Part shown: positions 16,917 through 32,102 of the stretch, piece after piece
Layout: every line of letters begins with the position of its first letter
How positions within the stretch are numbered: position 1 is the stretch's first letter
Source of the DNA: a bacterium
Lineage (GTDB): Bacteria; SAR324; JACQKK01
Length of the DNA stretch: 64,000 nucleotides
Reading direction: 5' to 3'
Assembly (NCBI GenBank): GCA_965240465.1
Contig: OZ251219.1
Coordinates: 1,216,001 to 1,280,000 of the forward strand
The notes under the pieces: generated by a model
Told to the model about the DNA's origin: nothing
The model's database searches: none
The model's input: only the letters and a program-made list of their open reading frames with translations
Program-made: the position numbers and the translations under genes

Positions 16917-17411
16917 ATGTCTCAAGAATTACTTAGCAAACTGGAAAGCAAAATCTCCCTAGCGGTGGATGCCATCAGAGAACTGCGTCAAGAGAACCAA
17001 ATCCTACGACAAGAAAGAACCACTCTGGAACAAAAATTACAAAGCCTGCTTGATAAAACCAGTGACCTCCAAAACACTGCTGAGGACATCAAAGAAAGCA
17101 CTCGCGACCAATCGGCTTTTAATTCCTCCAGCACAGAACAAGCTAATTCATTTACTCCAAATGATTTCAGCACTCCCTCCGATGATCAATCCCCTTCCAA
17201 TACTCCCGATAGATCCGCTGACGAACTACGCTCCAGCTTTGATTCAAACCTTCAAACACAGCTGGAAACACAACAAATAGCAGAAGCACCCGATAGTTCC
17301 ATTCTTACCGAAGACCCCGAACTGTCCGACCGACCGTCAGCCGATCTGCCGCCAGCCGATCTGCCGCCAGCCGATCTGCCAACCAGCTGGAGAAGTGGGG
17401 AGCAAGAGTAG
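16917..17411 (+). CDS. zapB: Cell division protein ZapB-like coiled coil with disordered C-terminal extension
   Basis: MSQELLSKLESKISLAVDAIRELRQEN...EQKLQSLL resembles ZapB; followed by an S/D/P-rich tail with ADLPP x3. Confidence 0.65.
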   Translation: MSQELLSKLESKISLAVDAIRELRQENQILRQERTTLEQKLQSLLDKTSDLQNTAEDIKESTRDQSAFNSSSTEQANSFTPNDFSTPSDDQSPSNTPDRSADELRSSFDSNLQTQLETQQIAEAPDSSILTEDPELSDRPSADLPPADLPPADLPTSWRSGEQE

Positions 17412-17518
17412 GACGCGGGAACAAGCGGGGAAAATCACAGGCACGGGAGGGTTGAGGGCGAAAAAGGGGATGCGAGAGGGTGGGGGGTGGGGGGTTGCGA
17501 GGGTGCGGGGAATAACAG

Positions 17519-17683
17519 GCGGGAATAAGGGAAAATCAGGTGCGGGAATAAGGGAAAATCAGGTGCGGGGATAAGGGAAAATCAGGCACGGGAGGGGCAG
17601 CCACTGATGCCTTGGCAGCCACTGATGCCTTGGCAGCCACTGCTGCCTTGGTAGCCACTGCTACCTCGGTAGCCACTACCTTG
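17519..17683. repeat. Two adjacent tandem arrays: 23-bp GCGGGAATAAGGGAAAATCAGGT x3 and 18-bp GGCAGCCACTGATGCCTT x~4.5
   Basis: Read directly from the sequence. Confidence 0.9.
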
Positions 17684-17714: not shown

Positions 17715-20102
17715 CTAGCCTGCTTTATCGGCTTCTAGTAGTTCTTTGCGTATGGTGGGGAATATATTGGGACGGACGACTAGGGCACTAGCTAGTTGCA
17801 GTGGTCTCCAGTGTGCGAAGAAGCTGAGATTACCAGCGGAGATATTGCTAACGACGGCTGGCAAGTTAAGTTCTCTGGCTCTGCGGATGCCGTGTTCAAG
17901 CATGCTTAGTACGGCTGGATGTTTTTCGTCATAGAAGTCTCGTGCGAGTATATTGTTGGCGTCGGTGCCTTGTGCGAGTTGTGCGATATCGGCTACGCTG
18001 AATATGATTCCGTCCACCAAGTTTTTCAGTTCTTCTAGGATGTATATTTGGCATGGGGTTCGGATGAGTAGGTGTATATTCAGATTATCTTTGCTGGCTC
18101 TGAGTTTATTATTTGATAGAATATCCAGCAGTTTTTGGGTTTCTTTAGGGCTTTGTGTTGCGGGCAGGATGAGTTCTATTTGATTTTGCCCTAGTTCATT
18201 GCGAGCCCGAACGATGGCTTGAAGTTCCAGTTGGAAGGCTTTTTCGTAATCTAGGTCTTGGTAGCGGGAAACTCCTCTTGCTCCTAGGAGGGGGTTTTTT
18301 TCTATTTCGGTGAATTTAGTGCCTCCGATGAGCCGTGACATTTGGTCGCTGGTGGCATCAGAGAGCAGTACTCGGGTAGGTTTGGGGTATACTGAGGCGG
18401 CAATTTGGGCGATCATTTGAGAGAGTTTACGCAGGAAGAAATCTTTTTTATCGGGAAAGCCCACGCTGATTTCGTCCAGCTTATTTTTGTCATCAATGTA
18501 GGGGTAGTTGATAATTGCTAGCGGATGGACGGGCATTTCATGGGAGAGCAGTTCATCTACCCGCAGCAGACCGACCCCTTCATTAGGATAGCGAGCATCG
18601 GAGAAGCTTTGGTCGGGTTTAGCTTGGTGGAACATCAGTGATAGGGAGGGCATTTTCAGTTCGGAGAGTTTAACTGTTTCTTCTTTGAAGGGCAGCAAGC
18701 CATCATAGACTACTCCCTTGCTACCACCTGCACAGGATACGGTTATTTCCTGCCGATCATTTATGCTATTAGTTGCTCCTTCGGCTCCCACTATGCAGGG
18801 AATACCCAACTCGCGAGATATTATGGCAGCATGACTGGTGCGTCCACCCAGTTCGGTGACGATTGCAGAGGCGATGTTCATGATTGGTACCCAGTCGGGA
18901 TCGGTAATTTCTGTTACCAGCACCATGCCCTTCTTAAACATGTTGATGTCTCTGGCAGTCCTTAGTACGCAAGCTTGTCCACTGCCGACATAATCACCTA
19001 CAGCCATACCTGAACAGAGTATTCGGCTAGTTTTTTCCAGTTTTACTTGATGGATCAGGTCGGTATCGCGTCGGGAGATTACGGTTTCTGGTCGGGCTTG
19101 AACGATGAACAATTCCCCTGTTTTACCATCTTTAGCCCATTCTATGTCCATGGGTTTTCGGTAGCCGGCTTCTTGAGAATAGTGGTCTTCAATGATTTTC
19201 GCCCACTTAGCTAGTGTATAGACATCATCATCGCTGAGGCAAAATTGATCGCGTTCTGCTTGGGGGACGTCTTTATTTTCTATTCCCCTAGATCTCAGAT
19301 AGACCATCCGCTTTTGTTTTGCTCCCAGCAATGAGTAGATAATCGCCTTTTTGTTTAGGCTCAGGCTGGGCTTGTGAACGTACCATTCATCGGGATTGAT
19401 GGCTCCTTGTACGACATTTTCTCCTAGTCCATAACCGCCAGTGATGTAAATAGCGTCCTTAAAACCGCTTTCGGTATCAATGGAGAACATTACTCCTGCC
19501 GAGGCTAGGTCGCTACGCACCATTTTTTGTACTGCAATGGAAAGCGATACGGAGAAATGATCGAATTTCTTTTCCTGACGGTAAGCGATGGCTCTATTGG
19601 TGAACAAGGAGGCAAAGCAATTGCGGCATGATGTCAGTAGACATTTGTTTCCCTTTACGTTTAGGTAGCTTTCCTGTTGTCCTGCGAAGGAGGCATCGGG
19701 GAGGTCTTCTGCGGTAGCGGAGGATCTGATGGCAACATCTACATTTTTAGTTTTGTATTCATCACCCAGCTGCTCGTAAGCATCGGTGATGGAGTTGGCA
19801 AGCTCCTTAGACATGGATACCGAGCGAATTAAATCTCGGATATTCTTACCACGTTTAGCTAAATCCTTGATGTTTTTACCATCCAGACCTTTTAGGATGT
19901 CTACAATTTTTTCCTTAATGCCAGTACTTTCAACAAAATGATTGTAAGCATGTGCCGAAATAGCAAATCCACTGGGAATTCGTATGCCCCTGATGGTCAA
20001 ATTAGAGAACATTTCTCCTAAGGAAGCATTTTTGCCTCCCACGATGGGGACATCGCGGATGTCTAGATCTGCGAACCAATAAATGAAGTTGTTTCTTGCC
20101 AT
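17715..20102 (-). CDS. ppsA: PEP synthase (PpsA) homolog with degenerate C-terminal pyruvate/PEP domain
   Basis: VGGKNASLGEM, RSSATAEDLPDASFAGQQ, DIEWAKDG...VQARPETV and GGRTSHAAI are intact; C-terminal MCEIP, GSND and GICG motifs are absent. Confidence 0.9.
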   Translation of the reverse strand: MARNNFIYWFADLDIRDVPIVGGKNASLGEMFSNLTIRGIRIPSGFAISAHAYNHFVESTGIKEKIVDILKGLDGKNIKDLAKRGKNIRDLIRSVSMSKELANSITDAYEQLGDEYKTKNVDVAIRSSATAEDLPDASFAGQQESYLNVKGNKCLLTSCRNCFASLFTNRAIAYRQEKKFDHFSVSLSIAVQKMVRSDLASAGVMFSIDTESGFKDAIYITGGYGLGENVVQGAINPDEWYVHKPSLSLNKKAIIYSLLGAKQKRMVYLRSRGIENKDVPQAERDQFCLSDDDVYTLAKWAKIIEDHYSQEAGYRKPMDIEWAKDGKTGELFIVQARPETVISRRDTDLIHQVKLEKTSRILCSGMAVGDYVGSGQACVLRTARDINMFKKGMVLVTEITDPDWVPIMNIASAIVTELGGRTSHAAIISRELGIPCIVGAEGATNSINDRQEITVSCAGGSKGVVYDGLLPFKEETVKLSELKMPSLSLMFHQAKPDQSFSDARYPNEGVGLLRVDELLSHEMPVHPLAIINYPYIDDKNKLDEISVGFPDKKDFFLRKLSQMIAQIAASVYPKPTRVLLSDATSDQMSRLIGGTKFTEIEKNPLLGARGVSRYQDLDYEKAFQLELQAIVRARNELGQNQIELILPATQSPKETQKLLDILSNNKLRASKDNLNIHLLIRTPCQIYILEELKNLVDGIIFSVADIAQLAQGTDANNILARDFYDEKHPAVLSMLEHGIRRARELNLPAVVSNISAGNLSFFAHWRPLQLASALVVRPNIFPTIRKELLEADKAG

Positions 20103-20245
20103 GTTGCGTCAATCTCTGAGGGTGATAGGTACAATCTCTAAGGGTAATAGGTACAATCAGGGAACAAATATAATAATAGACAGATCTAATCAGGGATAAA
20201 TGCCATCTCTCTGTGAGAAATTTTCTTAAAGAACTTTAAGAAGCC

Positions 20246-20635
20246 TTAAGAAATAACGCCATCTGTAGTTAATTTGTCAATTATGGACTCCATTTCTTCT
20301 ACATCTTCCACATAGGGTATATCAAAGGTATCAGAAATCTTTTTATGTACGCTCCAGAGTTGTGAATGTACCGAATCGGGCTTGGTGGATAACAAAATCT
20401 CCTCATTTTTGCTTTCTTGAAACCTAGCCAGACCCTCAGCGATGTTGGTAAAGTAAGGGCGAAATTCCTTTTCGCCAAGTCCTGCTAGGGTTTTGGCGGT
20501 CTTAAATGCCATGTTAAAGTAGTTGGTCGCTGATTCCTGATCCTTATTCTGCAAGTCAGTGATGCCCTGCTTGACACACTTATTAAGGCGATTGAATAAT
20601 TTTAAGTTGCGTACCGTTTTAAGTGTATCGCTCAT
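20246..20635 (-). CDS. Hypothetical alpha-helical protein
   Basis: AAGGA RBS before ATG at 20635; co-oriented upstream of ppsA. Confidence 0.7.
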   Translation of the reverse strand: MSDTLKTVRNLKLFNRLNKCVKQGITDLQNKDQESATNYFNMAFKTAKTLAGLGEKEFRPYFTNIAEGLARFQESKNEEILLSTKPDSVHSQLWSVHKKISDTFDIPYVEDVEEMESIIDKLTTDGVIS

Positions 20636-20982
20636 ATGACAAAATTCCTTAAACAACTATTAAAAAAATCCAAATATGGACCAAATATAAAGCACCTTGA
20701 CCCAAAGCCAGCTACCTTGTCATTAAGCCACCAGCTACCTAAGCCACCAGCCACCTCTCGAGAAGCTACCAGCTACCTTTAAGGTCTTCATGTACTATGT
20801 AAGCATGATACTAATTTATTTACAAGCATTCTAGCTGGTAAGTATTAGAATGCCATAAGCAAGTACTCGTGCTAGATTTGGCATGGGAGCATGAATTCTC
20901 TCAGTAGCAGACCGAGAATAACACCTAAAAAGAACATCCGAACAGAACATCCGAACAGAACATCCAAAAATAACATCTAAGC

Positions 20983-22863
20983 ATGGACAAAAAAAGCAAG
21001 CAGCCAGTAAATAAGAGGGTTAAGAAAAATAAGATTGATGGGGGAATTCTGGTAATCAATTTTGGGGGTCAATATGCTCATTTGATTGCCAAGCAAATTC
21101 GTAGTTTGGGGGCAAGTGCAATCATGGATTCTCCTGAAGTGCTACCACATGATTATAGGGCGGAGGGATTAAAGGGTATCATTTTATCGGGTGGTCCGCG
21201 TTCGGTATGGGAGGGGGGATCGCCAGAATTAAATCCCTTTTTGTGGAGGACCAAGTTGCCGATCTTAGGGTTGTGTTATGGACATCAGTTAATTGCGAGG
21301 ATCTATGGTGGCGGAGTGAATACTCAGCAACAGGGAGAATATGGCAAGACCCGCTTGGAATCAGTAGATACTAGCCATCCGCTATTTAAGGGATTGGAAA
21401 ATGCCGTAAAGTCTAGGGGAAGCAGAATGCGGGAGGTCTGGATGAGCCATCAAGATACCGTCCGCGAGGCTCCCCCAGGATTTGAGGTTTTGGCAAGTAC
21501 CAGGGAATGCCCTGTGATAGCGATGGCTGATGATGAGCGAAAACGATATGGTTTGCAGTTTCATCCAGAGGTAAAGGACACTCCCTTTGGCAGGGATATC
21601 TTGGCTAATTTTTTAGAATTAGCAGAGGTAAAGATTGATCGGAGTATGAGGGATGTACAGGCTGATTTAGAAAAGCAATGCAAGATTCAAGTGGGTGAAC
21701 GCAAGGTGCTGATGTTCTTAAGTGGTGGGGTGGATAGCACGGTAGCATTTGCCTTATTGAATAATGCCTTGGGTGTGGATCGGGTACGGGGAATCTTTGT
21801 GGATAATGGCTTCTTGCGTTTGGGTGAGGTGGAGCAGGTACGGAAATCTTATGCTGCTTTGGGATGGAAGAATATCAAGTATGTAGATGCCTCAGCCTAT
21901 TTTTTGCGGGCTTTGAAGGGTTTGACTGATCCTCAGGAGAAGCGGATCGCGGTAGGGGAGGCATTTTTAAGAGTACGGGATATTCAGTTAAAGGAGATGG
22001 GATTAAATCCTGAGGAGTGGATGTTGGGGCAGGGGACTTTGTATCCTGATATTATTGAATCTGGCGGAGAGGAGCATGCGGCGGTAATCAAGTGGCATCA
22101 TAATCGGGTGCCTGCGATAGCTGACATGATTAAGGCTGGTTTGGTGATTGAACCCTTAAAGGATTTATACAAGGATGAGGTGCGTGAATTGGGGACGGAG
22201 CTGGGTTTGCCAAAGGAGTTGGTATGGCGACATCCTTTCCCGGGCCCGGGGTTATCCATCAATGTGATTTGCTCGCATTGGGGGGAACACTCAATCGTAG
22301 ATCCTGTTAAGGGATCGCAGATGGATGAGTTGCCAAGTGGCTGTGGCTATAAGGGGATGGTATTGCCAGTGTTTTCGGTGGGGGTACAGGGGGATGCCCG
22401 CACTTATGTTAATCCAGCGTGCTTGAGCGGTCTACCAGACTGGGAGGCTTTGGAGGATTTATCTACCAATATAACCAATGAGGTGAGTGAGGTTAATCGG
22501 GTGGTGTATTTATTGGGTGGGCAGTTGTCGGATTTGTCCTTGCAGGTGGGATTTTGCGACAAGGGGCGTTTGGATGTGCTTCGCGATGCGGATTGGCTAG
22601 CGACCACTGCTTTTGAAAAAGCTGGCTGGATGGAGAAGATTTTTCAGTTGTTGGTGATCTTGCTTCCATTTGGTAAGTCTGCTAAATCAGGTTCTGTGGT
22701 GTTGCGACCAGTCATTTCGGAGGATGTAATGACGGCTAGATTCGCCCAGCCTCCTTGGGAGTTATTGGAGGAATTAACTCCTCAGTTGTTGGAATTGCCA
22801 GCTATTGATGCGGTATTCTATGATATAACGCATAAGCCACCAGCTACTTTTGGCTGGGAATAG
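20983..22863 (+). CDS. guaA: GMP synthase (glutamine-hydrolysing)
   Basis: GIILSGGP, GLCYGHQ, QFHPEV, SGGVDS, QGTLYPD, HPFPGPGL and KPPATFGWE motifs. Confidence 0.97.
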   Translation: MDKKSKQPVNKRVKKNKIDGGILVINFGGQYAHLIAKQIRSLGASAIMDSPEVLPHDYRAEGLKGIILSGGPRSVWEGGSPELNPFLWRTKLPILGLCYGHQLIARIYGGGVNTQQQGEYGKTRLESVDTSHPLFKGLENAVKSRGSRMREVWMSHQDTVREAPPGFEVLASTRECPVIAMADDERKRYGLQFHPEVKDTPFGRDILANFLELAEVKIDRSMRDVQADLEKQCKIQVGERKVLMFLSGGVDSTVAFALLNNALGVDRVRGIFVDNGFLRLGEVEQVRKSYAALGWKNIKYVDASAYFLRALKGLTDPQEKRIAVGEAFLRVRDIQLKEMGLNPEEWMLGQGTLYPDIIESGGEEHAAVIKWHHNRVPAIADMIKAGLVIEPLKDLYKDEVRELGTELGLPKELVWRHPFPGPGLSINVICSHWGEHSIVDPVKGSQMDELPSGCGYKGMVLPVFSVGVQGDARTYVNPACLSGLPDWEALEDLSTNITNEVSEVNRVVYLLGGQLSDLSLQVGFCDKGRLDVLRDADWLATTAFEKAGWMEKIFQLLVILLPFGKSAKSGSVVLRPVISEDVMTARFAQPPWELLEELTPQLLELPAIDAVFYDITHKPPATFGWE

Positions 22864-22917
22864 CCTCCCCAGTGATTATACTCAGTGATTATACTCGGTT
22901 AGCATTGTCTAGTTTCA

Positions 22918-24108
22918 ATGAAAAAGAATTCTGATGGAGTAGTAGGGGTAGCAACAGAAAAGAGATTATTTGCTGCGAGGGTTATTGTAGATGCTAGGTT
23001 TTTGGGGAGTGGTTCTGGGTTAGACGCTTATGTGAGGCATTTATTGCCTGAGGTGGCTAGATTATTACCTAAGGTGGAATTCATATTATTAGCTGATCCT
23101 GAGGTTAGATTGCGATTTTCGTGGTTAGATGGCGAGCAGTTTTCTATTTATCCCATGTTGAGTAAGGCTTATTCTTGGGGGGAGCAGTGGAGATTTTTTG
23201 GTGTTCCTAGGGGTGATTTGTTTTGGTCTTGCAATTTCAACGTTCCTATTTTTTTTACTAGTCCTTTTTTTCCTACTAGGACTTTGCTAGTGACAATCCA
23301 TGATTTAATGCTTGATAATTTTTATGCTACCAAGTTGCCGTGGTACAAGCTCAGAATGTTGCGAGTTTATATGCGGACGATCATCAAGAAGGCGGCGGGG
23401 ATTATTTGTATTTCGGGATTTAGTAGAAATGAGATTGTATGGAGATATGGTTTACCTGCTGGTCGGCTAAAAGTAATTAGGTTGGGAGTAGCTGATAGTT
23501 GGTTTAGGCTACGGGCGGACAAGAGAACAGTCCATGCCCGCCCATTTTTTTTGTTTGTGGGTAATTTGAGGCAACACAAAAACTTAGTTAATCTTATTTA
23601 TGCTTTTCGTCAGGTGCGAGAAAAAACGAAACATGATTTGGTTATCATAGGCAGTGCAAAGGGAAAATTCGGCACTGATAGCGAGGTCTTGAAATTGATG
23701 CATTCTGAAACGAGGGTTTATTATAAGGGGTCTTTATCGCAAGAGCAGACGGAGCAGTTTTTTATTCAGTGCGATGCCTTTGTGTTTCCATCTTTGTACG
23801 AGGGGTTTGGTCTACCTCCCTTAGAGGCGATGGCTTGTGGAAAGCCCGTGGTAGCTTCTTATAGCACGGCAATTCCCGAGGTCTGTAATAAGGCGGTGCT
23901 GTACTTTGACCCTCTGGATGTTGATGACATCGCTGAAAAAATGTTGCGGGTAACGAAAGATAAAAATTTACGCCAACAGCTAGTGCATGATGGTCATTTG
24001 CGGGCGAGGCAGTTCACTTGGAAAAATTGTGCTAAGGAAACCAGTGAGCTATTGTTGGATGTCCTGCAAAAAACAAAAAAAGGTAGGCTAAGCCTAGCTA
24101 AACACTAA
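22918..24108 (+). CDS. Glycosyltransferase family 4
   Basis: VTIHDL, HKNL and FPSLYEGFGLPPLEAMACG motifs. Confidence 0.92.
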   Translation: MKKNSDGVVGVATEKRLFAARVIVDARFLGSGSGLDAYVRHLLPEVARLLPKVEFILLADPEVRLRFSWLDGEQFSIYPMLSKAYSWGEQWRFFGVPRGDLFWSCNFNVPIFFTSPFFPTRTLLVTIHDLMLDNFYATKLPWYKLRMLRVYMRTIIKKAAGIICISGFSRNEIVWRYGLPAGRLKVIRLGVADSWFRLRADKRTVHARPFFLFVGNLRQHKNLVNLIYAFRQVREKTKHDLVIIGSAKGKFGTDSEVLKLMHSETRVYYKGSLSQEQTEQFFIQCDAFVFPSLYEGFGLPPLEAMACGKPVVASYSTAIPEVCNKAVLYFDPLDVDDIAEKMLRVTKDKNLRQQLVHDGHLRARQFTWKNCAKETSELLLDVLQKTKKGRLSLAKH

Positions 24109-24123
24109 GAATGAGTCAGGGCA

Positions 24124-25245
24124 GTGAAAATTGCGGTTGTTTGTGATTGGCTGGATAGCTATTCGGGTGCAGAGCGGGTTCTAGAACAGATATTATATTT
24201 GTTCCCTGAGGCTACCTTGTATTCGCTGGTGGATTTTGTTCAAGAGAGAGAATTCTTACAGGGACATAAACCGCGAACTAGTCTTTTACAGCATTTTCCT
24301 TGGGCACGGAGGCATTTTCGGGCTTTTCTGCCTCTGATGCCCAGGATGATAGAAAGCCTCAATCTGCGAGATTATGACGTAATAATATCTAGTTCTCATG
24401 CGGTAGCAAAGGGAGTACGGGTTCGGGCTAATCAATTACATTTGTGTTACTGCCATACTCCGATGCGATATGCGTGGATATTTGAGTCGCAGTACTTAGC
24501 CAGCCTAGGCGGAGCAATGAATCCTGCGGTATGGGCTGCTCGGCTGCTGATGAGGCAGATCAGGCGTTGGGATGCGGGCTGTTGTGATAGGGTATCCAAA
24601 TTCGTAGCCAATTCTCACTATGTAGCGGCTCGGATTAAGACTGTTTATGGTCGCGTGGCGGAAGTGATTTATCCTCCGGTGGATGTGTCTCGCTTTCGGG
24701 TAGGAAAGTGGCCGCGACGAGGACCTTATTGCACGGCGTCGCGCTTGGTACCCTACAAAAGAATTGATCTGCTGAGTGAAGCTTTTTCGCAAATGCCAGC
24801 GCGTCAATTGGTGGTCATCGGAGGAGGAAAAGCTCTGCCTCATTTGCGTGCTAGGGCACCTGCCAATGTGAAATTTCTGGGTCACCTTCCTCCAGAGGAA
24901 ATGCAGCAGCACTTGCGTGAAGCCCGAGCCTTCTTATTTGCAGCCGAAGAAGATTTTGGTATTCTTCCCGTAGAAGCCCAAGCCAGCGGAACTCCAGTGC
25001 TTGCCTACGGCAAAGGAGGAGTGTTAGAGTCGGTCAGGGGCTTGGATAATCGGCATCCAACAGGGATATTCTTTCCTGAGCAAAGTGTTTCGTCAGTAAT
25101 CCAAGCAGTGGAAAAATTTGAACAACTGGAAGCCAACTTTTCGCCTGCTGCCTGTCGTAAAAATGCCGAACGCTTCTCTAATGAAATTTTCAGGCGTGCT
25201 TTCTTCAGAACTTTCTCTAAACTTGTCAATGATGCTCGCGGTTAA
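24124..25245 (+). CDS. Glycosyltransferase family 4 (WbaZ-like)
   Basis: DWLDSYSGAERV, YCHTPMRYAW, SRLVPYKRID and EEDFGILPVEAQASGTPV motifs. Confidence 0.92.
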   Translation: MKIAVVCDWLDSYSGAERVLEQILYLFPEATLYSLVDFVQEREFLQGHKPRTSLLQHFPWARRHFRAFLPLMPRMIESLNLRDYDVIISSSHAVAKGVRVRANQLHLCYCHTPMRYAWIFESQYLASLGGAMNPAVWAARLLMRQIRRWDAGCCDRVSKFVANSHYVAARIKTVYGRVAEVIYPPVDVSRFRVGKWPRRGPYCTASRLVPYKRIDLLSEAFSQMPARQLVVIGGGKALPHLRARAPANVKFLGHLPPEEMQQHLREARAFLFAAEEDFGILPVEAQASGTPVLAYGKGGVLESVRGLDNRHPTGIFFPEQSVSSVIQAVEKFEQLEANFSPAACRKNAERFSNEIFRRAFFRTFSKLVNDARG

Positions 25246-25319
25246 TCGCTGAAGCTCATTAAAAACAAAACGTAAGGCAGAACGTAAAGCAGAACATATC
25301 ACTTCGGATAATTGAAACA

Positions 25320-26072
25320 ATGAGAGCCTTAAAAAAGCAAACAGTAATGCCTATCGGTACCCAACCTAACAAGGTGATTGCGTCTGTATTTTCATCTATC
25401 AGGGAGGTTATACAACCAAGACTGGAATTGCCAAAGGGGATGCAATACAACCAGCGTCTAAAAATGGAGGGTCTCCATTTTCTTGGCAAAATACCAGATA
25501 AACAAATATCCGTTGCCTTTCTAGACCCTCAATATAGAGGGGTGCTAGACCATTTGAACTATGGCAATGAGGGAGAAAAACGCGGTAAATCACGAAGTTC
25601 ATTGCCACAAATGACCGACAACATACCCAAATTTGTGCAAGAAATAGATCGCGTCTTAATCCCCAGTGGTCACTTGTTTCTCTGGATGGATAAATTCCAT
25701 TTGTGTACTGGGTTTCAGGATTGGTTGGATGGCACCTCTTTAGATGTGGTTGACATGGTCACTTGGGATAAGGGCAGGATCGGCATGGGATACAGAACAC
25801 GCCGTACTGGGGAATATCTCATTGTGCTGCAAAAAGAGCCACGCAAGGCAAAGGGAGTATGGAAGGTCCATAATATCCCCGATGTTTATAAAGAAAAAGT
25901 ACCCAATGGAAATGGAGTACATCCAAAACCAGTAGGGCTACAGGGAGAACTCATAGAAGCCGTTTCAAACTCGGGAGATGTGGTGATAGACCCCGCGGCA
26001 GGGTCTTTTTCCGTGTTAAGGGCTTGCGAAAAACTGAGGCGTAATTTCTTGGGTTGTGATATTAACGGATAA
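25320..26072 (+). CDS. Site-specific DNA methyltransferase (N4/N6, beta class)
   Basis: Motif IV variant DPQY, HPKP, motif I DPAAGSFS and FLGCDI. Confidence 0.88.
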   Translation: MRALKKQTVMPIGTQPNKVIASVFSSIREVIQPRLELPKGMQYNQRLKMEGLHFLGKIPDKQISVAFLDPQYRGVLDHLNYGNEGEKRGKSRSSLPQMTDNIPKFVQEIDRVLIPSGHLFLWMDKFHLCTGFQDWLDGTSLDVVDMVTWDKGRIGMGYRTRRTGEYLIVLQKEPRKAKGVWKVHNIPDVYKEKVPNGNGVHPKPVGLQGELIEAVSNSGDVVIDPAAGSFSVLRACEKLRRNFLGCDING

Positions 26073-26534
26073 TGGCTCTTTTAAAAAATGCCCGTGGGAG
26101 AAAAAACGGGGAGAGTAGCAACTATTCTAGGCTGCTAGGCAATCCCGACTTAGGTAAGCTGATAAGTCGCGTACACGCATCAACTATCACAGCTGGATTG
26201 GAATTGGAGAAGATAATAGCTGCTCGTGTGAAATCCATTTCAGATCTAGACGATTTTCTGAGCCAAGAACTGATGCCTGATGGTGTGTTCTTAGTTACAA
26301 AGGAACAACAAGGAAGAAATACATAAAGGATTTAAGAAAAAAATATCTCTGGCTGAGTGCATGACTGGACGCGAGTTTTGCAAACTGTTAGAAATTGACT
26401 ATGATGATATTGTGGCGAATAGAAAGAAAGAAGACGCGAGTAAAAACTTTTTGTACTTCATCCAAGAATTACTAAAAATTGATGAGGTAAGGGAAGTCAT
26501 GAGAAAACATTTTGCAGACTTAAAAAATGAGTAA
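26072..26534 (+). pseudogene. Probable cognate restriction endonuclease pseudogene (internal deletion/frameshift)
   Basis: Coupled to the MTase stop (TAATG). The 84-aa frame ends at 26326; a second open frame 26304-26534 (NKEEIHKGFKKKISLAECMTGREFCKLLEIDYDDIV...) supplies a plausible C-terminus. Confidence 0.6.
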
Positions 26535-26567
26535 GCTTGTCCATAAGCCCTCAATTATTCATTAACA

Positions 26568-27485
26568 ATGGAATTTTATATGCCTTCTAAGCGTAAAAAA
26601 ACAAAAACTGCTCCCAAAATAGCCAAAAAGATCACTCCGATCCCAGCAGCTAGCCCTCCTGAATCCCAAGGGCCACGCGGATACTGGCTGGGACTGAAAA
26701 TTCTGGCTGGAACGGGTATCTTGCTGACCGCCTACTTGACAATCTTAGCTTGGCTGAATGTTTCACCATTGGCTTGTGTTGAAGGCTCCGCCTGCGAGGC
26801 AGTACAATCCAGCCGCTGGGGAAGCTTGTTGGGATTACCTACATCCCTGTTTGGATTTCTATTTTATGCCGCGATACTCGGAGTGCTATTGCGAGTTCCT
26901 AATCTGGAACGCCGTTGGCGTTTGTTGTGGCGTTTTTCCTTATCAGCCTTGGCGATAAGCCTATATCTGATGACAATATCGCTATTTGTTATCAAGGCTA
27001 CCTGCTTGTATTGTCTGGCTTCTTTGTTATTGGTGATTGCCATCTTGGTACTGGTGATCTTATCTCGCCCGCCTCAAGTGATTATTGGAAGGTGGTTAAA
27101 GTACTCTGGGGCTGGTTTTGTAGCGATATTGATAGCCGTTCATTCGGTATATGCGTTGCCAAACTTTCTGCCAGACTTTCTGCCAGGGAAGGAAGATCCC
27201 TATCTTAAGGGCTTAGCCGAGCATTTAAGTAAGAATGCCGTAATGTACGGTGCTTCTTGGTGTTCTGCCTGTAAGAAACAAAAATCTTACTTCAAGCGTT
27301 CTGCTAAACGCTTGAAATATGTGGAATGTAGCGAGAGGGGAATTAGAGGACCTCAATCACCACGCTGTATTATTAAGGGTATTAACAGCTACCCTACTTG
27401 GTTTATCAATGGAAAAAGGCATGCCCCTGGTATTATCAAGATAAAAGAGCTAGCTGAATTAACAGGGTATGAGCCTCCCCAGTAA
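26568..27485 (+). CDS. Vitamin K epoxide reductase (VKOR)-thioredoxin fusion
   Basis: Loop cysteines C-x5-C followed by SRWG, CLYC active site, C-terminal YGASWCSAC...YPTW Trx-like domain. Confidence 0.92.
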   Translation: MEFYMPSKRKKTKTAPKIAKKITPIPAASPPESQGPRGYWLGLKILAGTGILLTAYLTILAWLNVSPLACVEGSACEAVQSSRWGSLLGLPTSLFGFLFYAAILGVLLRVPNLERRWRLLWRFSLSALAISLYLMTISLFVIKATCLYCLASLLLVIAILVLVILSRPPQVIIGRWLKYSGAGFVAILIAVHSVYALPNFLPDFLPGKEDPYLKGLAEHLSKNAVMYGASWCSACKKQKSYFKRSAKRLKYVECSERGIRGPQSPRCIIKGINSYPTWFINGKRHAPGIIKIKELAELTGYEPPQ

Positions 27486-29126
27486 TCATTTTCTTTGCTT
27501 CTGGCTGGCTTGGTTAAATTGATTCGGGTGTTGTTGCGACAAATGTTTCTGCGACAAATGTTTTTGCAGCAAGTTTTGTTTTATCAGCTGTCGTTGTAGC
27601 TTGCCATTGCTTGTTCGGGGGAGGGCATTTTCTTTTTTAATCCAGATAAATCTCTTGGGATGCTTCCAAGCCGCCAATCTTGCCTGACAATGAACTTTGA
27701 GAGCTTCATCATCGGGCTTGACTTGGGAGTCGTCTGCCACCAAAACAGCCGTGATGGACTCTCCCCAGCGAGGATCGGGCATGCCTATTATGGCAGCATC
27801 GCGGATGGCAGCATGCTCTGTTAGGGCTTGCTCCAACTCAGCTGGATGAATGTTCACTCCGCCACTGATGAGCATATCGCCCAAGCGTCCCAAATAAAAA
27901 TAAAACCCATCGGGGTCTTGACGGAGTATGTCGTCACTGCGTCCGTACCTGTTGCCATCGCTGTCTACCGAAAAGAATGAAGTGCTGGGGTCGTTGAGAT
28001 AGCCATCCATCATGCAGGGGGTACGCATGGTGAGCTGCCCAGGCTGACCTTGAGAAACTGGATGATTAAGGTCATCGGTTAGCTGTAGCTGGCAATAAGG
28101 GCTGGCTCTTCCTAGGCTGTTAGGGTGACTTTGATGCCCATCTTCGTCTAAGCCTAAGCAAAAGCCAGCTTCTGTTTGTCCGAAGCCTTGGAACCATTTA
28201 ACGCCAGGGAGCAGGCGGCGTAATTGCAGGACGATATCCGTCTGGGTGGGAGCAGCACCATAAACGATGTACTCTAAAGCTAGGGCGGGAACTTTCTCGG
28301 GCAAGCAGCTAAGCAACTTGAAAAGCATGGTAGGTACCGCAGGCAGATGAGTAATCCCTTGCTGGGCTAAGTCCTCCCAACACTGAAAAGCATTAAAACG
28401 AGTACGAAAAAATAAAGCCGCCCCCGATAACACAGCTGCCCAAATCAACCACTGACCAAATTGATGATGCAAAGGCAAGGCACACCAAATGATATGGCTA
28501 TCATTCAACTGGAGATTCTCTACGTGCATAAATGCATGCGATAACTTGGCGCGTTGACTAATCACCACCCCCTTGGGCTGACCGCTGGCACTGCTGGTAC
28601 CGCTGGTAAATAAAACCTGCATGGGAGACTCAGTAGTAACCACAGGGCTCTCTACCCGAATATCATCAGCGCGAAGCCGTTCACCCAGAAGCAGATCGTC
28701 CAGTAGCAGATCGTCCAGTAGCAGCATCTCAATCTTTAGCTTAAGGCTCGCCAGCACCCCCTCAAAGATTGGTTGCTCGGGTTGCTCCAGCCAGAGCAAT
28801 CGGGGCTGCAACTTTGTTAGCATGTATTGCAACTCAGGAGGCTTGCTATTGATGGGAATATGACCCAGAACAACCCCCGCCATGGCAGCTCCAAACTGAA
28901 CCGCCAATGAGCCAAAACCAGCCCTAGCACAAATGGCTACTCGCGTACCTGCCTCCAAACCCTGCACTCTCAGCTGCTCGGCTACCCCCAGAGATGCTCG
29001 TTCTAGCTCTTGCCAAGTCCAGCTCCTCCCGCCTAAGTAGCAGCAAATCTTCGCTGGTGAACGCTCAGTCCGCTCTTTCAATATGCTTTTCAGCGAAATT
29101 GTGCTAGAAAGTGGAAGAGATAACAT
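27486..29126 (-). CDS. Acyl-CoA synthetase / AMP-binding enzyme
   Basis: FTSGTSS..PKG, GFGQTEAG, ISGGVNIHP and LPRTSNGK motifs. Confidence 0.9.
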   Translation of the reverse strand: MLSLPLSSTISLKSILKERTERSPAKICCYLGGRSWTWQELERASLGVAEQLRVQGLEAGTRVAICARAGFGSLAVQFGAAMAGVVLGHIPINSKPPELQYMLTKLQPRLLWLEQPEQPIFEGVLASLKLKIEMLLLDDLLLDDLLLGERLRADDIRVESPVVTTESPMQVLFTSGTSSASGQPKGVVISQRAKLSHAFMHVENLQLNDSHIIWCALPLHHQFGQWLIWAAVLSGAALFFRTRFNAFQCWEDLAQQGITHLPAVPTMLFKLLSCLPEKVPALALEYIVYGAAPTQTDIVLQLRRLLPGVKWFQGFGQTEAGFCLGLDEDGHQSHPNSLGRASPYCQLQLTDDLNHPVSQGQPGQLTMRTPCMMDGYLNDPSTSFFSVDSDGNRYGRSDDILRQDPDGFYFYLGRLGDMLISGGVNIHPAELEQALTEHAAIRDAAIIGMPDPRWGESITAVLVADDSQVKPDDEALKVHCQARLAAWKHPKRFIWIKKENALPRTSNGKLQRQLIKQNLLQKHLSQKHLSQQHPNQFNQASQKQRK

Positions 29127-29263
29127 TATGGCTCTGCAAAAGTCTCAAAATAACAAGTACCCTAGATACCAGCATGCTCTTTCATCAATATCAATGTGGA
29201 GTATTCTTGCTTAGTACATGAATTCCTAGTCGGTAATTCTGTTCGCAATTCTTATAAGGAAAT

Positions 29264-32041
29264 ATGGTATCTCAGCCTCTTAAGAAGCCTATCATCACGG
29301 AAATGTTAGCTGCCGAAGAGCAGATCACTCCCTTATTCAGTGAGGGAGGAAGAGGATGGGGATTAATAGCCCGCCAGCAAGTCACACTCGCTTCCTGTGG
29401 AGCCAATATCCTAGACGGCTTTGTTTTGTCTGCAGATCTGCTTAGCCAAATAACCGAAGAAAAATCAATCCCGCTGGATGCCAAAGAAAAGATTGCCGAA
29501 AGCATAAAGGCACTTGAAAAAAGCAGTGGCAAATCTTTTGGAGCTACCAATTCTCCTGAAAAAAGCAGTGGCAAATCTTTTGGAGCTACCAATTCTCCCC
29601 CACTATTATTAAGTCTGACATTGGAATATCCAAGAGAGCCTATGGATAGGGGACAAGAGGAAGGTTCTCCACTAATCTCTTATAATGAACGAAGACGACG
29701 TTTTGTTAACTTAGGTTTGGTTAACAGCACAATGGAGGCTTGGCTGAAAAGCGGTGCAGAACCGCGTCAGGTTTGGGATGCCTGCCGTCGGCAAGTGGAA
29801 CGCTGGGCAATCATTATGGCAGGGGAAAAAGAAGAGAAGTGGGAAGATGAGATGGCACGCCTCAGTCGGAAATATCTTGATTATGGCACGAGACACTATG
29901 CAGGGCTTTCAGCTACCGAGACGGAAAACTTCACTAAAGAAATTCAAGGGTTGTGTGAAGATTGTGAGATTGCTCAGTTGAAGGATGATCCGTGGGAGCA
30001 GCTATGGCAGGTGATTACCGAATTTTACCGTAAAGCACCAGAGAAGGAGCATTTGAAAAAAAAGGACTATCCAAGCATGTTGGTGCGGGAAGCACCCCAA
30101 GGTTTTAGCCCTACAGGAGGGGCAGGGGTTTTGCAATCGCGTATTCCCATGACAGGTGAGGTGGGTTGGCATGGTTCTTTTGCACCATTTGCACAATTGG
30201 ATGATTTATTCTATGGCAATCGGTTGCCTGAAAAAGCAGCCTATTTTTGTGAAAAATTTCCGAAAATATTGCAAGAACTATCGGCTTTGTCAAAAAAGCT
30301 GGAAGATAAGCAAAAAGAAGTAAAAAAAATATTTTTTGTGTTGGAATCAGAGCAAGGACGGTATCCTGAGTTGCTAGTCTTAAGTACACGGGAAGCAAGT
30401 TTTAGTCCTGAGGTTTCCTTTCATGTGGCTTTAGATATGCAAGCTAAGGGCATATTGGATGAAAAGGAAACCATGGCCCTAATCCAGCCTGAGTTTATTC
30501 GTAGCCACTTGCATTCCAAATTGGATGTCTCTAAGACCGCCTCCCTGTTTTGCCAAGGATTGCCCGCCTCGGCAGGATGCGCGGTGGGTCAGCTGGTACT
30601 ATTTGCAGAAAATGCCGAAAAATTGGTGGAGCAAGGCAAACAGGTGATCTTGGTGCGTCATGAAACCACCCCAGAAGATATTAATGGGCTGAAATCTGCT
30701 GATGGAGTACTGACTTCGGGTGGAGGTTATACTTCGCATGCGGCATTGGTGGCTCGGGGAATGGGTAAGCCCGCAATAGTAGGGGTGAATACCCTAGTGG
30801 TAGATTATCTGCTGAACGAGATCTGCTACCAAGGGATTACATTGCAACAAGGAGACTGGATTAGCATGGACGGAGCAACAGGTAAGGTATATGCGGGCAA
30901 ACTAGACACCATACCCCCTGTTATATCCCACGAGGTGCATAAAGTACTCAGGCTGGCTGATAAAACCAGAACCCTGAAAGTGCGTGCCAATGCAGATAAC
31001 GTAGCCGATGCCCGTTGTGCCTTAGAAAATGGGGCAGAAGGAATAGGACTATGTCGCACCGAACATATGTTTTTTGACATGGAAAGGATCACTACCTTTC
31101 GCAAAATGATCCTCTCGGACACCGAAGAAGAATGTGATAAAGCCCTAGCTGAACTGCTGCCTCTACAAAGAGAAGATTTCTTGGAAATATTTCGGGTGAT
31201 GAAGGAACTCCCAGTAACTATTAGGCTGCTAGACCCGCCTCTGCACGAATTCCTGCCCAGAGGAGATAGATCCCGATCCCGAATGTCCAAAGCTATGGGC
31301 TTATCGGTACAGGATATCCAAAGGAGAATAGATGTCATGGCAGAGCAAAACCCGATGATGGGTAGACGCGGTTGCCGATTGGCGTTCACTAATCCAGGTA
31401 TTTATAAAATGCAAACCCGTGCCATCGTGGAAGCCGTTTCCTTGGCATCTCAGGAGGGCATTAAGGTCAAGGCAGAGATCATGATCCCCCTCGTCAGTGA
31501 TTGTCGTGAACTATGGATGCTGCGTTCGCAGATAGATGAAATTATCTCAGAAGAAAAAAACAAGGAACTAAGCAAGGAACTAAACATAGAAATTGGTGCC
31601 ATGATAGAAACTCCGCGGGCTGCCTTGTGTGCTGGTGAACTGGCAGAACATGCCGATTTTCTCTCCTTTGGAACCAATGACCTCACCCAAATGACCTATG
31701 GGATTTCTCGTGATGATACGGAAAGTTTCCTCCCAACATACTTTCAAAAAGGAATATTAGATAAAAACCCCTTCGTGAATATTGATGTCCGTGGGGTAGG
31801 CGAATTGCTGGACATAGCAGTTCAAAGGGCTCGGTCGGTAAAAGAAAACATAAAACTAGGCATTTGTGGAGAACACGGTGGAGATGCCTATTCGGTGCGG
31901 GAATTTCACAAACTAGGCTTGGATTATGTCAGTTGTTCTCCCTTTCGCTTATTGGAGGCTCGCTTGGCAGCGGGTAATTCGGTAGCCAGAGGAACTAAAA
32001 TCAGGTATCAGCCCCCCCCCCCAAGGTCAATCCTTAGCTGA
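29264..32041 (+). CDS. ppdK: Pyruvate phosphate dikinase (PpdK) homolog with degenerate N-terminal nucleotide-binding domain
   Basis: GGYTSHAALVARGMG, GIGLCRTEHMFF, TIRLLDPPLHEFLP, MIETPRA, SFGTNDLTQ and GICGEHGGD are intact; GGKG, SVRSG and DIEF motifs are absent. Confidence 0.88.
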   Translation: MVSQPLKKPIITEMLAAEEQITPLFSEGGRGWGLIARQQVTLASCGANILDGFVLSADLLSQITEEKSIPLDAKEKIAESIKALEKSSGKSFGATNSPEKSSGKSFGATNSPPLLLSLTLEYPREPMDRGQEEGSPLISYNERRRRFVNLGLVNSTMEAWLKSGAEPRQVWDACRRQVERWAIIMAGEKEEKWEDEMARLSRKYLDYGTRHYAGLSATETENFTKEIQGLCEDCEIAQLKDDPWEQLWQVITEFYRKAPEKEHLKKKDYPSMLVREAPQGFSPTGGAGVLQSRIPMTGEVGWHGSFAPFAQLDDLFYGNRLPEKAAYFCEKFPKILQELSALSKKLEDKQKEVKKIFFVLESEQGRYPELLVLSTREASFSPEVSFHVALDMQAKGILDEKETMALIQPEFIRSHLHSKLDVSKTASLFCQGLPASAGCAVGQLVLFAENAEKLVEQGKQVILVRHETTPEDINGLKSADGVLTSGGGYTSHAALVARGMGKPAIVGVNTLVVDYLLNEICYQGITLQQGDWISMDGATGKVYAGKLDTIPPVISHEVHKVLRLADKTRTLKVRANADNVADARCALENGAEGIGLCRTEHMFFDMERITTFRKMILSDTEEECDKALAELLPLQREDFLEIFRVMKELPVTIRLLDPPLHEFLPRGDRSRSRMSKAMGLSVQDIQRRIDVMAEQNPMMGRRGCRLAFTNPGIYKMQTRAIVEAVSLASQEGIKVKAEIMIPLVSDCRELWMLRSQIDEIISEEKNKELSKELNIEIGAMIETPRAALCAGELAEHADFLSFGTNDLTQMTYGISRDDTESFLPTYFQKGILDKNPFVNIDVRGVGELLDIAVQRARSVKENIKLGICGEHGGDAYSVREFHKLGLDYVSCSPFRLLEARLAAGNSVARGTKIRYQPPPPRSILS

Positions 32042-32102
32042 AATACTGAAGAGAAGCCAAGTAAAGAGCCAAGTAAAGAGCCATGTAAAGCCAGAGAAAT
32101 CA

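Follow-up and report, generated by a model that had tools for sequence, protein, structure and literature searches.

The locus and its two dikinase-like genes

The window analysed here is a stretch of 64,000 nucleotides (C1:1216001-1280000) taken from the single contig, C1 (1,599,138 bases), of the genome of an uncultured bacterium of SAR324, a widespread deep-ocean group. This source genome is called G000 below. The window contains two genes whose products resemble phosphoenolpyruvate (PEP) synthase (PpsA) and pyruvate phosphate dikinase (PPDK), i.e., two textbook single-chain swivelling-domain enzymes. The PpsA-like protein is referred to as P0001 and the PPDK-like protein as P0002. The two genes and the domains they encode are the following (positions in the window):

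17715..20102, minus strand: PpsA-like gene (P0001, 795 aa), whole open reading frame (ORF) including the stop codon, full length and uninterrupted
19068..20102, minus strand: ATP-grasp nucleotide-binding domain of P0001 (aa 1-345), canonical (PF01326, 398 bits)
18708..18950, minus strand: mobile phospho-His domain of P0001 (aa 385-465), with the GGRTSHAA loop (PF00391, 95 bits)
17718..18635, minus strand: remodelled C-terminal barrel of P0001 (aa 490-795), with only 79 bits for PF02896 (PEP-utilizers_C)
29264..32041, plus strand: PPDK-like gene (P0002, 925 aa), whole ORF including the stop codon, full length and uninterrupted
29264..30508, plus strand: degenerate ATP-grasp domain of P0002 (aa 1-415), nucleotide/Mg motifs gone, no match to PF01326
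29515..29598, plus strand: perfect in-frame tandem duplication (42 bp x2, 14 aa repeated) inside the degenerate domain of P0002
30521..30913, plus strand: mobile phospho-His domain of P0002 (aa 420-550), with the GGYTSHAA loop (PF00391, 80 bits)
30941..31978, plus strand: canonical PEP/pyruvate barrel of P0002 (aa 560-905; PF02896, 251 bits)

The first-pass annotation of this window had described both ORFs as full length and uninterrupted, and this was confirmed.

The two proteins were compared with those of 40 relatives (G001-G040), i.e., 18 genomes of the family of G000 (f1, thus 19 genomes with G000) and 22 genomes of the sister family of the same order (f2). Genus g1 is made of G000 and G001. 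The references for P0001 were the structure 2ols_A of the Protein Data Bank (PDB) and seven canonical PpsA sequences. The motifs of P0002 were compared with those of eight canonical PPDKs of f2, and its overall alignment with the structures 1kbl and 2r82.

A PpsA-like protein with a remodelled barrel

P0001 lies above the cut-offs of both NCBIfam equivalogs of PpsA, with 883.9 for NF005057 (cut-off 598) and 870.3 for TIGR01418 (cut-off 739.75), and its alignment to 2ols_A spans residues 4-766. The motifs GGKNASLGEM, RSSATAEDLP, MDIEW, VQARPET and GGRTSHAA are all intact, and the ATP-grasp motifs are invariant across f1. P0001 retains 79 of the 87 columns that are invariant in the canonical enzymes for the N-terminal domain (N-domain) and 26 of 31 for the His domain. 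For the barrel, this is the case for 52 columns of 106.

Four barrel motifs are replaced: R.SDFK by LLSDA, EIPSN by RTPCQ, GSNDLTQL by VADIAQL and GICGQ by VSNIS. The Arg of the first motif is thus changed to Leu, the Glu of the second to Arg, the Asn of the third to Ala and the Cys of the fourth to Ser/Asn. The change of Glu to Arg, at the position of a metal ligand, is invariant in all 17 sequences of the PpsA-like alignment. The corresponding motifs conserved in the PpsA-like proteins of f1 are RVLL[SP]D, HLLCRTPAQ, V[GA][ED]LAQL and NI[AS]P. The residues lost from the motifs of P0001, and from those of P0002 described below, are taken here to be nucleotide and Mg ligands, ligands of the PEP/pyruvate site and the catalytic Cys (general acid), after the literature on the PPDK of C. 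symbiosum.

Judging from its motifs, P0001 is predicted to be able to phosphorylate its own His with ATP, and the Arg, Glu, Asn and Cys required for the transfer to pyruvate are gone from its barrel. P0001 is filed as PpsA by its hidden Markov model score but fails the defining barrel motifs, and therefore it is not called a PEP synthase here. The first-pass description of this protein (ATP-grasp motifs and His loop kept, barrel motifs lost) holds against 2ols_A and the seven canonical sequences.

A PPDK-like protein with a degenerate ATP-grasp domain

P0002 shows the reciprocal pattern. Only two Pfam families match it, and no match to PPDK_N (PF01326) was obtained at E <= 0.01. Its score for TIGR01828 (769.8) is below the cut-off of 843.45, and it aligns to the PPDK structures 1kbl and 2r82 only over residues 147-906.

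With reference to the PPDKs of f2, the motifs of the N-domain are replaced as follows: GxKGANL by GWGLIAR, SVRSGA by SLTLEY, DLEFTIE by KIFFVLE and LQTR by LSTR. Five separate nucleotide/Mg motif positions are thus replaced in the protein of G000, i.e., the Lys of GxKG, the Arg of SVRSG, the acidic pair of DxEF and the Gln of LQTR. On the contrary, GGYTSHAA, CRTEHMFF, IRLLDPPLHEF, IETPRA, GTNDLTQ and GICGEHG are intact. The number of f2-invariant columns retained is 54 of 152 for the N-domain, 49 of 66 for the His domain and 129 of 165 for the barrel. These results bear out the first-pass description of P0002 (His loop and barrel intact, N-domain motifs lost), both for the f2 enzymes and for the PPDK structures.

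The N-domain of P0002 is nevertheless predicted to be folded by AlphaFold2 used with the family alignment: the predicted local distance difference test (pLDDT) is mostly 80-93 by block, except for residues 1-18, 97-108 and 125-145. Residues 97-108 correspond to the 42-bp duplication. It must be noted that this predicted fold leans on homology, since the input alignment included canonical sequences. P0002 would thus be able, judging from its residues, to exchange phosphate between PEP/pyruvate and its own His, and the use of a nucleotide appears to be lost.

Distribution in the family and selection

The PpsA-like form was found in all 18 f1 relatives in addition to G000, as full-length proteins or contig-end fragments (56-72% identity). 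The same search in f2 gave matches in 7 of 22 genomes, all of them proteins made of the N-domain only. A profile of the altered barrel leads to the same distribution: 457-536 bits in G000 and the 18 f1 relatives, no match in 45 f2 genomes, and a single weaker match (254 bits) among 24 genomes of five other families. Among 1.84 billion representative proteins, only two are in the range of scores found in f1 (436 and 421 bits), the next one being at 282 bits; the motif RTP.Q is found in only 2 of the best 150 matches. These best 150 representative proteins also include other PpsA-like proteins, unrelated to the subfamily of P0001, in which one domain or more is degenerate, so that pseudo-domains of the PpsA type may be recurrent in metagenomes.

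Of the 18 f1 relatives, 17 gave a match to the PPDK-like form. The exception is G005 (84% complete), for which the best match is the third paralog described below. Canonical PPDK is present in 8 of the 22 f2 genomes.

The mean pairwise identity was calculated for each domain. In the PPDK-like proteins of f1 it is 0.36 for the N-domain, 0.65 for the His domain and 0.68 for the barrel. In the canonical PPDKs of f2 the three values are nearly equal (0.65, 0.68 and 0.67, respectively). The latter being a calibrated control, the N-domain of PPDK is therefore relaxed throughout f1. For the PpsA-like proteins of f1 the values are 0.73 (N-domain), 0.78 (His domain) and 0.55 (barrel).

The ratio of nonsynonymous to synonymous substitution rates (dN/dS) could not be used for G000 vs. 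G001, the synonymous sites being saturated, and was thus taken from same-genus pairs in other f1 genera. For the PpsA-like proteins, dN/dS is 0.20 and 0.16 in the altered barrel, and 0.15 and 0.07 in the intact N-domain. For the PPDK-like proteins, it is 0.49 and 0.40 in the altered N-domain, and 0.16 and 0.07 in the intact barrel. The remodelled barrel is thus strongly constrained; the N-domain of the PPDK-like proteins is relaxed three- to six-fold, yet it is not neutral. Moreover, 36% identity is retained between the PPDK-like N-domains of G000 and G001 though synonymous sites are saturated.

The decay of this N-domain is graded within f1. Most members keep both the Lys of the first motif and the Arg of the second, which are lost in g1 (G000 and G001) and in G008. 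Where the canonical enzymes have the glutamate of DLEF, all 16 of the f1 PPDK-like orthologs aligned are different. In 15 genera, every complete copy examined of either gene has an intact ORF.

The comparison of the two families leads to the conclusion that both altered forms are a family trait and not a recent decay. It is very probable that both genes encode intact, selectively maintained His-swivel PEP-utilising proteins, each of which keeps one of the two half-reactions.

An orphan gene next to the PpsA-like gene

One more gene of the window is linked to P0001:

20249..20635, minus strand: orphan gene (129 aa) directly upstream of the PpsA-like gene and on the same strand, product predicted to be a four-helix bundle

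In all 16 loci (that of G000 and 15 others of f1) this gene adjoins the one that encodes the PpsA-like protein, with 60-84% identity. Its mean column identity, 80%, is above that of the PpsA-like enzyme itself. No Pfam or NCBIfam family matches the protein. Its homologs are 157 in number; the 120 listed have 124-171 aa, and those that are named are hypothetical proteins from the same group of metagenome-assembled genomes. The four-helix bundle is predicted with a pLDDT of 91, and the invariant polar patches, which include two His residues, suggest a binding surface.

The structural comparisons gave no closer relative. Foldseek found no match in the PDB at E <= 0.001, and the wide search with VIA-align gave generic helical bundles only (top Z 11.3, for designed proteins). 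The Z values for histidine phosphotransfer (HPt) domains, 9.8 for CheA P1 and 8.5 for HptB, are both under the noise level of helical bundles (about 13). In the ESM Atlas the best score, 0.85, is to viral hypothetical proteins, i.e., there are no useful neighbours. The possibility that the orphan protein is the helical insert of the PPDK N-domain was rejected, the profile comparison being not significant (probability 0.6%, E 0.099). No match was found either between the orphan profile and the PpsA-like alignment.

Given its new set of conserved motifs and this dedicated and conserved neighbour gene, the PpsA-like barrel is not simply dead.

The intergenic gaps around the PpsA-like and PPDK-like genes contain dense short tandem repeats (17334-17677, 20110-20158, 20724-20980 and 32055-32090). 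Scans of the locus for promoters and terminators gave counts equal to those of shuffled sequence.

Paralogs and PEP-pyruvate metabolism in G000

The marker completeness of G000 is 84%, and the enzyme absences reported here are those of six-frame family searches of this one genome; «not found» is used in that sense. G000 has in all three matches to PF02896, one to PF01326 and three to PF00391, and all of them are in P0001, P0002 and a third PPDK-like paralog, P0003. The single strong ATP-grasp domain of the genome is thus that of P0001 and the single canonical barrel that of P0002. No intact paralog of PpsA or PPDK was found in G000.

P0003 (G000:C1:394393-396909, outside the window; TIGR01828, 391 bits) is altered at both ends: its N-domain motifs are changed, its barrel is degenerate, and its His loop is without the Thr that precedes Ser-His. 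It belongs to a wide and uncharacterised PPDK-like subfamily, recorded as from Spirochaetota, Leptospiraceae and others (named «PEP-utilizing enzyme» or «putative PEP-binding protein»), with 35-41% identity, about 600-700 bits and the same N-domain motifs. However, the canonical barrel kept by the Spirochaetota members is lost in those of SAR324, including P0003. P0002 is not a member. The proteins of this subfamily are below the PPDK cut-off; they have a conserved non-canonical N-domain (GIRGRR, KVVLSS, EIREIKF and VEQR.VDEKSTQ) and a His loop without the regulatory Thr.

The cluster of P0003 (G000:C1:392320-400077) is conserved in f1. Its other ORFs, of 645, 109, 168 and 607 aa, are present in 18, 16, 14 and 18 of 18 loci, respectively, the one of 109 aa with 77-86% identity among the matches listed. 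The proteins of 645 and 607 aa look mutually paralogous, and no significant Pfam match was obtained for any of the four.

Pyruvate kinase was not found in G000, and it is present in all 40 relatives searched. Its gene is cleanly deleted (C1:87480-88798) between neighbours that are syntenic with G001 (C1:450500-458000). Neither ATP-dependent PEP carboxykinase (ATP-PEPCK), GTP-dependent PEP carboxykinase (GTP-PEPCK) nor PEP carboxylase was found in G000, nor was any domain of pyruvate carboxylase or oxaloacetate decarboxylase. Enolase and malic enzyme were found. Since the other linking enzymes were not found, the barrel of P0002 is the only recognisable PEP-pyruvate catalyst in this genome. With regard to the relatives, ATP-PEPCK is present in none of the 18 of f1 vs. 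17 of the 22 f2 genomes, and GTP-PEPCK in 9 of 18 vs. 2 of 22.

HPr (PF00381) and PtsP, of the PEP:sugar phosphotransferase system (PTS), were not found in G000 either. An EIIA-Ntr-like domain is nevertheless present at G000:C1:1133928-1134308, and most of the larger f1 members have PtsP-sized matches. The absence of PDRP/PpsR is not informative, since it was found in none of the 41 genomes of the order, G000 included.

A dikinase divided between two polypeptides?

The two half-losses are reciprocal and both proteins are kept by selection across f1; therefore P0001 and P0002 may work together as a split enzyme. That they act in trans as a split dikinase is the favoured reading, which is put forward as tentative. 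P0001 would be the ATP/AMP half and P0002 the PEP/pyruvate half of a dikinase divided over two polypeptides, and phosphate would be exchanged in trans between the His domain of either protein and the working catalytic domain of its partner. The orphan four-helix protein would probably join P0001 in the ATP/AMP half. In G000, PEP and pyruvate would be linked by this pair only.

This reading is supported by the reciprocal losses of motifs, by the fact that no complete enzyme was found in G000 and by the metabolic gap of that genome. The first-pass annotation had proposed the same split enzyme, with a separate repurposing of the two proteins as the alternative, and had made it depend on (i) the co-occurrence of both forms in relatives, (ii) the absence of intact paralogs and (iii) a non-neutral evolution of the altered domains. 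All three were found: the PpsA-like form is in G000 and all f1 relatives and the PPDK-like form in all of these relatives but one, no intact paralog was found in G000, and dN/dS is 0.16-0.20 in the altered barrel and 0.40-0.49 in the altered N-domain. Complementarity, co-occurrence and selection are thus in its favour. The absence of linkage and of His-domain convergence, the third paralog and the remodelling of the barrel with its orphan partner are not, and the interpretation itself is upheld in part only.

Several observations weigh against a split dikinase. (i) The genes of P0001 and P0002 are 9 kb apart and on opposite strands. Unrelated genes lie in between (for guaA, two glycosyltransferases, a DNA methylase, a VKOR-family protein and an acyl-CoA ligase), so that P0001 and P0002 are not encoded in an operon. 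In G008 and G009 the PpsA-like and PPDK-like genes are on different contigs, and there is no linkage outside genus g1. (ii) The convergence of the His domains is nil: among the changed columns, 0 of 9 in the PPDK-like proteins are of the PpsA type, and 0 of 2 in the reverse direction. (iii) The co-occurrence in f1 is a single evolutionary event and has thus little statistical weight. (iv) The other f1 genomes depend less on the pair, since pyruvate kinase is present in all 18 relatives and GTP-PEPCK in 9 of them; the metabolic gap is thus complete in G000 only. (v) A third paralog is present. (vi) A remodelled barrel with an orphan partner of its own is explained equally well or better by a separate function. 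(vii) To our knowledge, there is no precedent for a transfer in trans between two full-length three-domain proteins.

An independent repurposing of the two proteins is nearly as likely as the split dikinase, and it is held with somewhat less confidence. P0001 and the orphan protein would then be an ATP-driven His-phosphotransferase or sensor with a new acceptor or ligand at the remodelled barrel. P0002 would be, separately, a PEP-dependent Enzyme-I-like autophosphorylating enzyme or a PEP-to-pyruvate valve, its phospho-His being hydrolysed or passed on. The set of new barrel motifs conserved under purifying selection, including the change of Glu to Arg at the metal-ligand position, is consistent with this, as are the conservation of the adjacent orphan gene in 16 of 16 loci, beyond that of the enzyme itself, the absence of linkage of the two types of gene outside g1 and the His domains without convergence. 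The PPDK-like subfamily of Spirochaetota, with its altered but conserved N-domain and canonical barrel, indicates likewise that the domains diversify independently. On the contrary, no acceptor was identified, HPr and PtsP were not found in G000, and the orphan protein matches no known phosphocarrier, its Z of 8.5-9.8 to HPt domains being within the noise of helical bundles. Moreover, such a repurposing would leave G000 without an energy-conserving route from PEP to pyruvate and without any route from pyruvate to PEP.

A broader scheme appears rather improbable. The PEP-pyruvate node would have been rebuilt in f1 as a multi-protein His-phosphorelay of PEP-utilising paralogs: ATP would charge P0001, and the phosphate would move, possibly via the orphan protein at the remodelled barrel and/or P0003, to P0002 and then to pyruvate, or the other way round. 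Such a relay would be the equivalent, linked to ATP, of the PTS cascade, and would couple central carbon flux to signalling.

It is very unlikely that one or both proteins are still complete enzymes by means of non-canonical residues, i.e., that the annotation as PpsA and PPDK is functionally right. The scores of P0001 above the equivalog cut-offs, the Lys of GxKG and the Arg of RS retained in the less degenerate f1 orthologs of PPDK and the predicted fold of the P0002 N-domain speak for it. However, five nucleotide/Mg positions of P0002 are replaced with only 54 of 152 invariant columns retained, the position of the DLEF glutamate differs in every one of the 16 aligned f1 orthologs, and in P0001 an Arg stands in place of the Glu ligand of the metal, with the Arg, Asn and Cys of the other barrel motifs gone.

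The view that these are redundant genes still decaying in a reduced genome, their altered domains having no function left, is disfavoured as the least probable of all: it would suit the small size of G000 (1.6 Mb vs. 2.3-5.2 Mb for most relatives), the larger number of N-domain motifs lost in g1 and G008 than in other f1 members and the perfect 42-bp duplication within the degenerate domain of a genome rich in tandem repeats, but the ORFs are intact in every complete copy of the 15 genera, the PpsA-like barrel has a low dN/dS with 55% mean pairwise identity, and the dN/dS of the PPDK N-domain is not close to 1, with the identity between G000 and G001 persisting despite synonymous saturation.

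Comparison with known systems

P0001 has the three-domain order, the canonical ATP-grasp domain and the His loop of PpsA (TIGR01418/NF005057; PDB 2ols). It differs from PpsA by a barrel without the Arg of R.SDFK, the Glu of EIP, the Asn of GSND and the Cys of GICGQ, and by its dedicated 129-aa neighbour. P0002 has the length, the domain order and the canonical His loop and barrel of PPDK (TIGR01828; PDB 1kbl and 2r82), from which it differs by a score below the family cut-off, the absence of a PF01326 match and the replaced nucleotide motifs.

P0002 alone would work in the manner of the Enzyme I of the PTS, i.e., as a phospho-His enzyme that depends on PEP and has no nucleotide half-reaction; the His domain and the barrel are homologous (the matches are weak). 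However, P0002 has no match to the HPr-binding subdomain EIN, and HPr was not found in G000. Neither P0001 nor P0002 is an Enzyme I.

Phenylphosphate and phenylphosphoamidate synthases are relatives of PpsA with two or three subunits. In these enzymes, the ATP-binding module and the His-carrying/substrate-binding modules are on different polypeptides, the ATP-binding subunit of phenylphosphate synthase being separate from the His-carrying one, and phosphate passes in trans (PMC7500099); this is counted here as a precedent. The subunits are truncated, each with a single function, their genes form one cluster, and phenol or aniline serves as the acceptor. The pair studied here does not have this split architecture: P0001 and P0002 are full length, a His domain is present in each of them, and their genes are not linked. 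These split synthases are the closest working analogy to a split dikinase, on the functional level only. With regard to the reactions, PPS and PPDK have separable partial reactions, can run towards pyruvate and are used physiologically in both directions (PMC8100219).

A literature search, which did not cover subscription journals, found no relevant paper on PPDK or PEP synthase of SAR324 or on PEP-utilizing pseudoenzymes. What is new here is the third PPDK-like paralog altered at both ends, the conserved orphan gene and the fact that no other PEP-pyruvate enzyme was found in G000.

Significance for SAR324

Automatic annotation calls both genes functional, and P0001 passes the NCBIfam equivalog cut-off. 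If the two halves cooperate, the pair would be a natural experiment in which a swivelling-domain enzyme is divided between polypeptides, and caution would be required in the metabolic reconstruction of SAR324. In the opposite case, the remodelled barrel and the orphan protein would point to a novel ATP-driven phosphotransfer function.

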